This document shows positions 41,919-51,310 of a stretch of 64,000 bases of DNA, in pieces. The notes under the pieces were generated by a model. It was not told where the DNA came from. It saw only the letters and a program-made list of their open reading frames with translations, and searched no databases. The first letter of the stretch is position 1. The number at the start of each line of letters is the position of its first letter. Source of the DNA: Octopus vulgaris (lineage: Eukaryota); NCBI GenBank assembly GCA_951406725.2, contig OX597818.1, forward strand, positions 30,690,001-30,754,000, read 5' to 3'. Made by a program: the position numbers and the translations under genes.

Positions 41919-42602
41919 GGATCTTTACCTTTTGACCTAGAGATTTAAAAAATAATTTTTTGTAACTAAACACTTTCAAACTTCAGACACTGGTAGAATG
42001 TGTCATATAAAACATCTTTTACTCTTAGCATTTTTGAGAAAGACTTATATTTACGAAGTAATTTCACGCCAAAGTAGTCCTATTTCGGTAATTTCAACCA
42101 ATCAATGACGTGTATTCAACTGAATAAAATTACTGTCGTTGTTTGTCAACAAGAACTTCCGGCGGTGTATTTTTCGTTTGTCACTGTTATTTATGACAAC
42201 CCTAACCATAAAACCCTAACCCTAACCCTAAAACCCTAACCCTAACCCTAAAACCCTAACCCTAACCCTAAAACCCTGACCCTAACCCTAAAACCTTAAA
42301 GCTAAAACCAGTACAAACGCACGAACGATGTCATAAACAACAGTGACAAACGAAATATGCACCGCCGATAGTTGTTGTAGACAAACAACGGCAGTAATTT
42401 TATTCAGCTGAATACACGTCATTGATTGGTTGAAATTACCGAAATAGGACTACTTTGACGTGAAATTACTTCGTAAATATAAGTTTTTCTCAAAAATGCT
42501 AAGAGATGTTTTATATGACACATTTTACCAGTGTCCGAAATTTGAAAGTGTTTAGTTACACAAAATTATTTTTTCAATCTGTAGGTCAAAAGGTAAAGAT
42601 TC
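41919..42602. mobile_element. Foldback DNA element: ~280-bp TIRs around a (TAACCC)n core, 8-bp TSD
   Basis: TSD TTCTAAAA at 41911-41918 and 42603-42610. Termini are GGATCTTTACC and GGTAAAGATTC. Telomere-type repeats lie at ~42198-42300. Confidence 0.92.
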
Positions 42603-46772: not shown

Positions 46773-46816
<44 letters not shown>

Positions 46817-46863
46817 ACACACACACACACACACGTATATATATATACGCATATATATACGCA

Positions 46864-46916
<53 letters not shown>

Positions 46917-47151
46917 TAGCATATTTATTCCACACCAAGTGGCCTAGTGCTTCGAGAAACCTGGATTATTATAATATTTTATAACATATTATAATATTTT
47001 TACAAAATAAATATAAGAGAGTGGTCACTATATTGCTCACTCTAGCACCAGTTAATCCAAAAGGTTTCAACCACGAAAATACATGTTTACCATGAAAGTC
47101 AGTACGATTGTTAGCTCACACGGACAGGGCAAATAAAAAATAACAAAAATA

Positions 47152-47248
47152 CAGATTATTTTGGGACAATTGTTTCGCTATTAATGAATTAAATGTAATT
47201 TTACTTACAAAAAAAATCCATTTGTAGCTCGTCAGCCAAGACTATCTG
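47152..47248 (-). ncRNA. Type-I hammerhead ribozyme, copy 1
   Basis: cagatagtcttgg-CTGACGA-gcta...tagc-GAAA-caattg-TC-ccaaaataatctg, with a complete core. Confidence 0.85.
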
Positions 47249-47686
47249 GATGAAATCCACTCAATCACACGCCAGATATTACCATAACGATAAATACGCG
47301 TGTGGTTCAATTGATTACATCCGACGTTATAATTCAAATGCCCCAACCAACAGCGCGCCAAACTTTCACGGAAAACAAATACAGCATTTAGAAATAAATG
47401 CAGCATAATTATAATTAATTAATAAGGGTGAGAGAATTAGATACTAATTTAATAGCATATTTATTCCACACCAAGTGGCCTAGTGCTTCGAGAAACCTGG
47501 ATTATTATAATATTTTATAACATATTATAATATTTTTACAAAATAAATATAAGAGAGTGGTCACTATATTGCTCACTCTAGCACCAGTTAATCCAAAAGG
47601 TTTCAACCACGAAAATACATGTTTACCATGAAAGTCAGTACGATTGTTAGCTCACACGGACAGGCAAATAAAAAATAACAAAAATA

Positions 47687-47783
47687 CAGATTATTTTGGG
47701 ACAATTGTTTCGCTATTAATGAATTAAATGTAATTTTACTTACAAAAAAAATCCATTTGTAGCTCGTCAGCCAAGACTATCTG
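47687..47783 (-). ncRNA. Type-I hammerhead ribozyme, copy 2
   Basis: Identical motif to copy 1. Confidence 0.85.
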
Positions 47784-48190
47784 GATGAAATCCACTCAAT
47801 CACACGCCAGATATTACCATAACGATAAATACGCGTGTGGTTCAATTGATTACATCCGACGTTATAATTCAAATGCCCCAACCAACAGCGCGCCAAACTT
47901 TCACGGAAAACAAATACAGCATTTAGAAATAAATGCAGCATAATTATAATTAATTAATAAGGGTGAGAGAATTAGATACTAATTTAATAGCATATTTATT
48001 CCACACCAAATGGCCTAGTGCTTCGAGAAACCTGGATTATTATAATATTTTATAACATATTATAATATTTTTACAAAATAAATATAAGAGAGTTGGGGCA
48101 TTTGAATTATAACGTCGGATGTAATCAATTGAACCACACGCGTATTTATCGTTATGGTAATATCTGGCGTGTGATTGAGTGGATTTCATC

Positions 48191-48287
48191 CAGATAGTCT
48201 TGGCTGACGAGCTACAAATGGATTTTTTTTGTAAGTAAAATTACATTTAATTCATTAATAGCGAAACAATTGTCCCAAAATAATCTG
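48191..48287 (+). ncRNA. Type-I hammerhead ribozyme, copy 3
   Basis: CTGACGA at 48204-48210 and GAAA at 48263-48266. The GUC cleavage triplet ends at 48274. Stem I has 13 positions with 2 mismatches. Confidence 0.85.
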
Positions 48288-48726
48288 TATTTTTGTTATT
48301 TTTTATTTGCCCTGTCCGTGTGAGCTAACAATCGTACTGAATTTCATGGTAAACATGTATTTTCGTGGTTGAAACCTTTTGGATTAACTGGTGCTAGAGT
48401 GAGCAATATAGTGACCACTCTCTTATATTTATTTTGTAAAAATATTATAATATGTTATAAAATATTATAATAATCCAGGTTTCTCGAAGCACTAGGCCAC
48501 TTGGTGTGGAATAAATATGCTATTAAATTAGTATCTAATTCTCTCACCCTTATTAATTAATTATAATTATGCTGCATTTATTTCTAAATGCTGTATTTGT
48601 TTTCCGTGAAAGTTTGGCGCGCTGTTGGTTGGGGCATTTGAATTATAACGTCGGATGTAATCAATTGAACCACACGCGTATTTATCGTTATGGTAATATC
48701 TGGCGTGTGATTGAGTGGATTTCATC

Positions 48727-48823
48727 CAGATAGTCTTGGCTGACGAGCTACAAATGGATTTTTTTTGTAAGTAAAATTACATTTAATTCATTAATAGCGA
48801 AACAGTTGTCCCAAAATAATCTG
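48727..48823 (+). ncRNA. Type-I hammerhead ribozyme, copy 4
   Basis: Same motif, but the stem III loop is CAGTTG rather than CAATTG. GUC ends at 48810. Confidence 0.82.
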
Positions 48824-48965
48824 TATTTTTGTTATTTTTTATTTGCCCTGTCCGTGTGAGCTAACAATCGTACTGACTTTCATGGTAAACATGTATTTTC
48901 GTGGTTGAAACCTTTTGGATTAACTGGTGCTAGAGTGAGCAATATAGTGACCACTCTCTTATATT

Positions 48966-49008
<43 letters not shown>

Positions 49009-49182
49009 AGTATATGAAAGAATGGAGTTGAACGACTAGTTAACAAATATCCTTTATTCTCGACATATGTTTCGAAGGCTGCATATTCCTAATTCCGTGT
49101 TCTTTCTGATGTGAATTTGCTACCCAGGTATCAGTTATCTTTCGAATTATTCTTAATAAGATAATTCATTCAACTACTCAAA

Positions 49183-49291
<109 letters not shown>

Positions 49292-49582
49292 CCACTTTTA
49301 GGTCACTTGACCATTTAACATCCTATTACTATCATACCACCCAGCATTCTTTTATTATTCTTTCTCTTCTTCTCCTTCTTCTTCTTTGCCTTCTTCCTCT
49401 CCGCCACCTCCTTCCTTACTTTACTACTACTGCTGTTTAGAATAACACCTACGCAAATATTATAAATGATGCATTCAAAAGAGATATCTCAAGAATTCAA
49501 TCACTGCTACCATCCTGAACAATTCAATCACTATTACCATCCCATTTAACATCCTACTGCTATCATACCACTCCCGCATTCT

Positions 49583-49662
49583 TTTCTTCTTCTTCTTCTT
49601 CTTCTTCTTCTTCTTCTTCTTCTTCTTCTTCTTCTTCTTCTTCTTCTTCTTCTTCTTCTTCT
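49583..49662. repeat. (CTT)n microsatellite
   Basis: Directly visible. Confidence 0.95.
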
Positions 49663-49905
49663 CTGACAAAAATTCACAACGACCTCGAACCCACATGAGT
49701 AAACAAGAGAGACAGAGACAGGCAGAAACAAGGAAAATGCCCCTTGTATTTGAATACTATGCAAATATTCTTTTAAAAACTTCTCATTTAATTTTTTAAA
49801 ATTTAATTGTTTTCCATACTTAGAGTTGAAAAGTCTGAATAACCGAAACCGGTACTAAAATGTTATTTATAAAATTATTTTAGCATTTTCTACTTTGACT
49901 TTTTT

Positions 49906-49994
<89 letters not shown>

Positions 49995-50643: not shown

Positions 50644-51310
50644 TCAATCAGGAATGGGTAGAATCTTCAATTTTTTAAAGAGACATTTATACATATGCTT
50701 ACATCCACTGAAAATTTCTGATCTTGAGTTCAATATCACTCTGGGGATCTTAGATCTACACAAAATGTGTGTCATTTCGGCCAAACAAAGCTTACATATA
50801 TTTGAACCGTTTACCTACCTGTAGACTTTTCAGTCACCTTCCATTAAAATACGTTTGGTATTTTTTCTCCTTCAGGTCCCAAACGTAGCTAGCCAACTTC
50901 GAGGCTTTACTTTTCTCACTATGACGGAAGGTTGATAAATGGTTTGCATAGCGCTTTCTGAAAACCCCTTCACATAACCCGATGTAAGTCTTCTCATCGG
51001 TTAGATTATTGTCGTTAGGAGTTGTAATATCTTCGGCCCCGTATACAATAGCTTCAGTCATGCATCGTTGTCTAGCGAGCAGGTTTCCGGGTCGCGACAG
51101 TTACATCAGGATCCACTCTTCTGTCGTTGGCTGCGTGCCATGATACTTTTCATATTCGGACAGCAGCTATATGATAGTTTCACTGAACTCCTGTTAAACA
51201 TTTCCTGTATTTGTGGTTTTCCGGGAAGTGCTTATCCAGGAGCGCAAGGAATCTCTTACCGATGTTTGTTTTTATATTAAGGGAAAAGGGAAGGCTAACC
51301 AAATAATCAC
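50644..51310 (-). pseudogene. Penelope-like element: linker and GIY-YIG endonuclease C-terminus, frameshifted
   Basis: LPFSLNIKTNIGKRFLALLDKHFP, KLSYSCCPNMKSI, CNCRDPETCSL, AIVY..KTYIGLCEGVFRKRYANHLSTF..LASYVWDLK, CKLCLAE..LNSRSEIFSGCKH..*. Confidence 0.9.

Follow-up and report, generated by a model that had tools for sequence, protein, structure and literature searches.

One young head-to-head insertion of a dispersed, non-coding hammerhead repeat in Octopus vulgaris, a likely Penelope-mobilised retrozyme

The window, a stretch of 64,000 nucleotides of Octopus vulgaris DNA (GCA_951406725.2, contig OX597818.1, positions 30,690,001 to 30,754,000 of the forward strand), contains at 46913-48971 an array of a 536-bp non-coding unit that changes its orientation at about 48093. 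A blastn search of the window, with the unit 48275-48810 as query, confirmed the layout that an earlier note had read from the letters. A left arm of 2.2 units on the minus strand (46913-48093, 1181 nt) is followed by a right arm of 1.6 units on the plus strand (48092-48971, 880 nt, 1.64 units); the units are 99.4-100% alike, and the arms differ from each other by private point changes. They meet head to head at 48092-48093, where a 2-nt microhomology joins unit positions 143 and 354. Each arm holds one complete monomer between two predicted cut sites, 536 nt long in the right arm (48275-48810, plus) and 535 nt, with one base missing, in the left arm (47165-47699, minus). Both flanks are (TA)n, the insertion target (46836-46912 on the left, 48972-49008 on the right). 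The right arm enters it at unit position 161, which we term site B, while the left arm ends at the atypical unit position 252, probably an end at unit position 291 (site A) minus ~34 nt lost between two ATTAA words. Internal copies of both sites lie on the plus strand of the right arm: B at 48435, a predicted start of reverse transcription, and A at 48565, enclosing a 130-nt stretch (48436-48565) that is the putative counterpart of the Penelope "tail". The unit has a GC content of 32%, and its longest ATG-initiated ORFs, of 52-54 aa, are disrupted in other subfamilies; they were rejected as genes for this lack of conservation, in line with the earlier statement that no ORF is present. A circular fold of the monomer 48275-48810 has -141 kcal/mol, well below the energies of 60 shuffles (z -5.9). 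As a whole, the array represents a single young insertion of an abundant, dispersed non-coding repeat with a predicted self-cutting RNA.

Each complete copy of the motif is predicted to adopt a type I hammerhead fold, in which a stem I of 11 pairs with a 2x2 internal loop, the CUGACGA core, a 52-nt stem II, and GAAA are combined with a palindromic stem III of only 2 bp. On the plus strand, the motifs occupy 48191-48287 (core 48204-48210, GAAA 48263-48266, predicted cleavage after 48274) and 48727-48823 (core from 48740, predicted cleavage after 48810). On the minus strand, they occupy 47687-47783 (core from 47770, predicted cleavage between 47700 and 47699) and 47152-47248 (core from 47235, predicted cleavage between 47165 and 47164). 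The catalytic core CTGACGA is intact in 4/4 copies, as had been claimed; the motif quoted for all of them is exact in only three. Stem III of the 48740 copy reads CAGTTG, with G at 48805, and that of the others CAATTG.

Covariation was analysed in 14 related copies, drawn from subfamilies with identities as low as about 70%. The core is invariant in this set, partly by construction as the pattern used to pick the copies holds the core; the stems are absent from that pattern. Both-sided changes occur at 7/11 stem I pairs and 2/4 basal stem II pairs of the 14 copies. Moreover, stem pairing is kept in 91% of 308 cells, a level reached by 0/500 shuffles, and slid controls give 33-43%. Core position 7, which is free in hammerheads, shows all four bases among the matches to a looser pattern. 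From this stem covariation, the hammerhead appears to be under selection.

The Rfam hammerhead models, which the earlier note had suggested as a check, returned no match at gathering score in the whole window, nor at E up to 10 within 46800-49100. The long stem II together with the 2-bp stem III presumably defeats these models. Matches to Rfam miRNA families in the window were rejected; they arise from the palindrome and from simple repeats. The lowest-energy fold of a single motif mispairs the core, at -23.8 kcal/mol compared with -18.2 kcal/mol for the active fold, a cost of 5.6 kcal/mol for the monomer. According to this folding model, activity would need a dimer or a protein. The palindromic stem III can form a self-duplex of -6.4 kcal/mol, and metazoan hammerhead motifs that act as dimers are likewise described as self-pairing through a palindrome in the accessible part of PMC4209133. 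In vitro, only 1/9 Xenopus retrozyme dimers cut (bioRxiv 10.64898/2026.07.22.740005), and Penelope insertion is unaffected by hammerhead mutants (PMC11167929).

Further repeats surround the array. A minus-strand remnant of another hammerhead-type repeat at 49005-49185, with GAAA at 49073 and a palindromic stem III, sits between two (TA)n tracts adjoining the array; similar text occurs in stretch L140. At 49290-49910 lies the 3' piece of an old and abundant Penelope family, also represented by L145:1750-2450. Its hammerhead is decayed (GAAA at 49845), and the piece ends in (TA)n ~330 bp to the right of the array. Fragments similar by tblastn to the Naiad-like RT of L056 are found on the minus strand at 50867-51287. 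Finally, 42198-42309 is a short telomere-like array of AACCCT/AACCCTAA repeats.

The unit is widespread. Exact matches to a 23-mer of the core number 587 in the genome searched (2.8 Gb, 227 contigs), compared with 0 for its reversed control, and a loose hammerhead pattern has 2,665 matches compared with 13 in a control; the motif is not a chance occurrence. Exact junctions of a unit end with TA were counted 834 times at site A and, by a narrower pattern, 473 times at site B. The copies are dispersed in (TA)n as tandem arrays with as many as 17 pure units (L045). Even at about 70% identity, subfamilies retain the unit, both end sites, and compensated stems. Older subfamilies, of about 70-80% identity, were seen in L126, L130, L133, L135, L138, L140-L142, and L060:8091-8191, where the hammerhead stems and both end sites are kept; thus, the lineage is long-lived. 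Additionally, the unit is present in further public runs under three organism labels, none of those listed being marked as RNA. Contigs from four runs guessed to be RNA cover it, as contigs that show neither strand, ends, level, nor circle.

Such arrays could in principle be debris from the pLTRs of a coding Penelope element, or else a DNA-level satellite, in either case with the hammerhead as a passenger. Frog retrozymes are related to pLTRs (bioRxiv 10.64898/2026.07.22.740005), and all insertion marks seen here are Penelope marks, in a screen that spans 140 stretches. However, an ORF with RT and GIY-YIG domains in pLTR position upstream of any unit was found in 0/140 of these stretches, so that an occurrence solely as the pLTR of a coding Penelope family, a possibility raised in the earlier note, was not encountered there. 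Arrays of up to 17 pure units also speak against debris, as do the unit, end sites, and compensated stems kept at ~70% identity, and a satellite is opposed by the haplotype and junction that each array has of its own. We give hardly any weight to either version.

The most informative part of the array is its flip together with two fixed ends, which is a family-wide rule and goes beyond the earlier note. Our first sample comprised 59 stretches (39 best-identity matches and 20 first-listed core matches) and the window. It holds 61 insertions: 20 with a single arm, 40 with two arms, and one complex. All 40 two-arm insertions run minus then plus, with their 3' ends outward and each with its own junction. 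The 3' ends lie at unit ~291 (A) or ~161 (B), where they enter (TA)n, while the 5' ends are spread over the unit. One A is paired with one B in 36/40 two-arm insertions. The other four have one atypical end, among them the window array (B on the right, 252 on the left), and A/A or B/B pairs amount to 0 of the 40. Neither arm is consistently the longer; A exceeds B in 16 of the 36 A/B insertions.

Palindromes are hard to assemble, and an inversion may be suspected to be an assembly artefact. Against this, polarity is identical in 40/40 two-arm loci, which follow the end rule with differing junctions, and the arms in the window carry private point differences. The probability of an artefact, against which the earlier note had cautioned, is practically negligible.

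The rule was repeated in a second sample of 58 of the 79 listed A ends outside the first, picked only by their A end. Tallied by eye, these 58 loci comprise 39 with a B end opposite, 15 with a single arm, three with another end, and one complex. A B end is thus opposite in 39/43 loci that are not single-armed; among the 39, three B ends are very short and one lies beside a very short A arm. No A/A pair was seen in the 58 loci, a count in which all-A/T second arms are unclassable and very short A/A pairs would be missed. Further, among the matches listed, the first 100 per end, like ends (A/A or B/B) never face outward as a pair at distances of up to 15 kb. An 18-kb B/B candidate was rejected as two separate insertions. 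In four other studies, contigs break into TA at site A (loose ends at 48565), and two break near B. Target-site duplications are mostly hidden by (TA)n; four candidates were noted in 40 two-arm loci, one of them fairly clear (L080). Two side observations concern individual loci. L127, L204, and L206 have a common junction and flank, and are apparently a two-arm insertion recopied inside another element. At L178:5652 and L195:6366, the 5' ends of single arms abut an outward tRNA-derived, SINE-like repeat, either as chance neighbours or as mixed insertions.

The two arms of one insertion carry one haplotype. By substitutions alone, sequences diverge by 0.18% within an arm and by 0.20% from one arm to the other of the same insertion; different insertions are 1.24% apart. 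In 348/349 comparisons at 13 polymorphic sites, the two arms match, while different insertions disagree in 33%. Eight private variants are fixed in both arms of seven insertions, and 14/60 insertions carry variants (21 in total) that are fixed in all covering units and unique within the sample. More A>G changes than expected, both in the contigs that cover the unit and among shared variants, raised the possibility of A-to-I editing of the template. This was rejected, as most of these sites are genomic polymorphisms; of the 21 private fixed variants, three are A>G and four T>C, so that they are not enriched in A>G.

Arm lengths range from less than one unit to 12 units, and the arms run through the predicted cut site. 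Of A arms near this site, 11/58 stop in the 100 nt before and 9/47 after; the corresponding figures for B arms are 12/33 and 7/21. With no drop at the cut site, the template must have been a circle or an uncut multimer, and a linear cut monomer is rejected on the same grounds. At up to 15 nt from the cut site, 5' ends are slightly enriched (11/100, p 0.02), too weakly for this to be used.

The stops of the two arms are partly in register. In the second sample, the A arm minus the B arm equals 130 +/- 40 nt in 14/35 short insertions, where 3.7 are expected, and 0/20,000 permutations are as high. In the first sample of long arrays, this was seen in 0/36 (1.1 expected). The register analysis omitted L204, L206, and L214 (other ends), L193 and L207 (complex), and L158, L164, L165, and L187, which have an arm too short to measure; L176 was added. 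A block of the A arm at site B was considered and rejected, as the excess in the first sample failed to repeat in the second: arms of up to 135 nt number 9/36 for A versus 3/36 for B in the first sample, and 7 and 12 of 35 in the second.

Whether a circle or an uncut multimer was copied bears on the role of the hammerhead. If the same Penelope enzyme copied linear read-through RNA, multimeric and uncut, that a homogeneous donor array had supplied, the hammerhead would be kept for another step and circles would not be the template. Such an RNA accounts for the crossing of the cut site, for haplotypes common to both arms, and for variants present in only some units; unprocessed RNA, moreover, was the main substrate of a Penelope protein in vitro (PMC11167929). 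In L045, L040, and L063, a few variants are found in part of the units only, and this in both arms; a single monomer circle does not explain them, and they may reflect multimeric templates or later conversion. In the long arrays L045, L039, L062, L067, and L072, variants return at intervals of a few units, and L045 has them in both arms. However, the private fixed variants of 14/60 insertions would each need an unsampled donor array, in a sample of about 140 of at least 834 insertions. A multimer also offers many A and B sites, and the total absence of A/A and B/B pairs would need an extra rule. We regard an uncut multimer as unlikely; multi-unit arms with private fixed variants appear to be explained best by a circular template.

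A different route to two identical arms is fold-back, in which one strand would be primed on RNA, the second arm would be self-primed from the cDNA, and the endonuclease would cut the second end. Identical arms follow from it by construction, and several junctions (L084, L172, L176, L212) lie on palindromes at the same unit position. Inverted Penelope junctions have been interpreted as self-priming (PMC3846280, in its available part). In 16/71 insertions, however, neither arm is long enough to have templated the other, close to the 16.8 predicted for independent arms, and with A the longer arm in only some of the A/B insertions neither site is always first. A later deletion at the palindrome centre could hide fold-back. 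On balance, we consider this route quite improbable.

Outward arms, one A and one B end, one haplotype, and in-register stops are accounted for most simply by two enzyme subunits acting on one RNA. The reading we prefer, and hold to be probable, is therefore insertion into (TA)n by a Neptune-type Penelope enzyme that primes both target strands on a single RNA, probably a circle. The hammerhead fold is conserved, no ORF is, and the tandem arrays are dispersed in (TA)n. In the sequence of events that we envisage, paired hammerheads would cut read-through RNA, and the products would close into 536-nt circles. A Penelope RT-endonuclease, probably as a dimer, would cut both strands of (TA)n; one 3' end would start copying at site A (unit 291) and the other at site B (unit 161). 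From each start, copying would proceed across the cut site over the lengths seen in the arms, from a fraction of a unit to 12 units. The two cDNA ends would then be joined by microhomology, which would yield arms that lie head to head, carry one haplotype, and end in one A and one B. The earlier note had read the array as a candidate retrozyme that a Penelope RT could copy in a rolling manner, and the insertion anatomy of the family lends support to the retrozyme, Penelope, and rolling-type parts of this proposal alike.

The biochemistry of Penelope offers a close parallel to these two starts. In vitro, a Penelope protein cuts AT-rich DNA and extends its two strands, starting at two sites inside the RNA (PMC11167929). 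These start sites define the Penelope tail, and the protein is predicted to be a dimer (PMC11167929). By analogy, sites A and B would fit the two starts of this reaction, with a tail of 130 nt. More tentatively, with slightly less than even confidence, we suggest that the arrays read out Penelope integration itself: a dimer on one RNA circle, with two fixed starts, rolling from a (TA)n break. If so, one mechanism would underlie the tandem arrays of retrozymes, the one-ended Penelope "tail", and head-to-head inversions; it would replace the self-priming model, and a 536-nt template would be available for an in vitro test.

A GIY-YIG search revealed a possible source of the enzyme. A young family has many copies of an intact 781-aa ORF (e.g., L105:930-6172, G000:C16; L106-L118, L120) with RT and GIY-YIG domains, the RT just below the Pfam cut-off. 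The protein carries a CX4CxxC linker, described in the accessible part of PMC8557442 as a mark of Neptune/Nematis. This Neptune-type family has a 456-nt pLTR and sits in (TA)n. Its ends are of two kinds, short (525 exact junctions) or 40 nt longer (103). Inverted copies, 3 among 16 loci (L110, L112, L118), each have one short and one long end. By eye, 6 of the 17 long ends lying in the range common to both lists have an exact short end as their outward partner, and no like-with-like pairs occur in that range. Between the unit and 20 GIY-YIG loci of several families, no significant sequence match was detected. We propose the 781-aa Neptune-type family as a candidate helper of the retrozyme unit. 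Its pLTR at L105:6045-6115 lacks a CUGANGA core and folds into a possible variant hammerhead with U3-A8 replacing C3-G8, a palindromic stem III, and a long AU stem I; U3-A8 variants of the hammerhead are known. In L086 and L181, a young arm is joined in outward orientation to an old Penelope 3' piece (L086:9218-9582, L181:490-950). The arms are 99-100% like young copies, and the Penelope piece of L086 is at most 83% like its full-length relatives. With such different ages, co-insertion was rejected, the pieces probably being later neighbours.

Among known systems, the array is likely a non-LTR retrozyme, with predicted self-cleavage and circles and a likely mobilisation by Penelope. It has a hammerhead in every unit, short and dispersed tandem units, no coding capacity, and low GC, as do the non-LTR retrozymes described in bioRxiv 10.64898/2026.07.22.740005 and in the available parts of PMC7229834 and PMC7761336, which likewise consist of tandem non-coding type I hammerhead units. 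As far as these texts go, the two also agree in that no LTR, PBS, or PPT is seen, in a stable predicted circle, and in Penelope as the proposed helper. The 536-nt unit exceeds the 170-400 nt RNAs in the accessible part of Cervera and de la Pena 2020 (PMC7229834) and is within the 51-972 bp of Li, Clavereau and Pollet 2026 (bioRxiv 10.64898/2026.07.22.740005). Its long stem II sets it apart from the retrozymes of these papers, for which expression and circles have been demonstrated, whereas the array is known here from genomic sequence. When present, the target-site duplication of retrozymes is longer than 4 bp according to the portions available. Head-to-head arrays with two fixed, mutually exclusive ends and (TA)n targeting do not appear in the available main texts on retrozymes. 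Literature searches returned neither a cephalopod retrozyme nor a pairing rule for retrozymes, although the supplements of PMC7229834 and of the 2026 preprint may list such repeats.

The Penelope marks of the array are inverted, 5'-truncated head-to-head copies, a tail at one end only, and the (TA)n bias known from Neptune and Naiad, in a repeat with no sequence in common with an autonomous partner among the 20 GIY-YIG loci. Neptune-clade Penelope-like elements (PMC11167929; PMC8557442 and PMC3846280 in part) have the same head-to-head insertions and one-ended tail and, in the text available, the same (TA)n target, 5' truncation, microhomology junctions, and a hammerhead near the end. For coding elements, a one-sided tail on inverted pLTRs is already known from the accessible parts of PMC8557442 and PMC3846280. 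The array differs from what these sources describe in having no ORF, a tail of 130 nt instead of 30-40, and up to 12 units per arm; no ORF with RT and GIY-YIG domains is joined to the repeat in the 140 stretches, as an autonomous Penelope or its pLTR remnant would have. The MRC1-type non-autonomous elements of Chlamys are, in the available part of PMC8557442, similarly non-coding, multicopy, head-to-tail, and moved by Penelope-type enzymes. According to the same part, their 3' ends are similar to that of the autonomous partner, and canonical hammerheads are mostly lacking (PMC8557442), whereas the array has the canonical motif and no partner similarity was found in the loci compared.

In L1 twin priming, both target strands prime on one RNA, which results in a 5' inversion. 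In contrast, the array has two fixed internal starts, no poly(A), and multi-unit arms, and the first arm usually runs past the second start site (it stops there in 2/36). The class of retrozymes is already known, and the array is a good example of it rather than a new kind of system. In the papers cited, a link between the spread of animal retrozymes and Penelope elements is proposed from co-occurrence and common ribozymes. Hundreds of young non-coding insertions with the Penelope signature turn this proposed link into counts, and a family of the same genome whose ORFs are intact is put forward as candidate helper.
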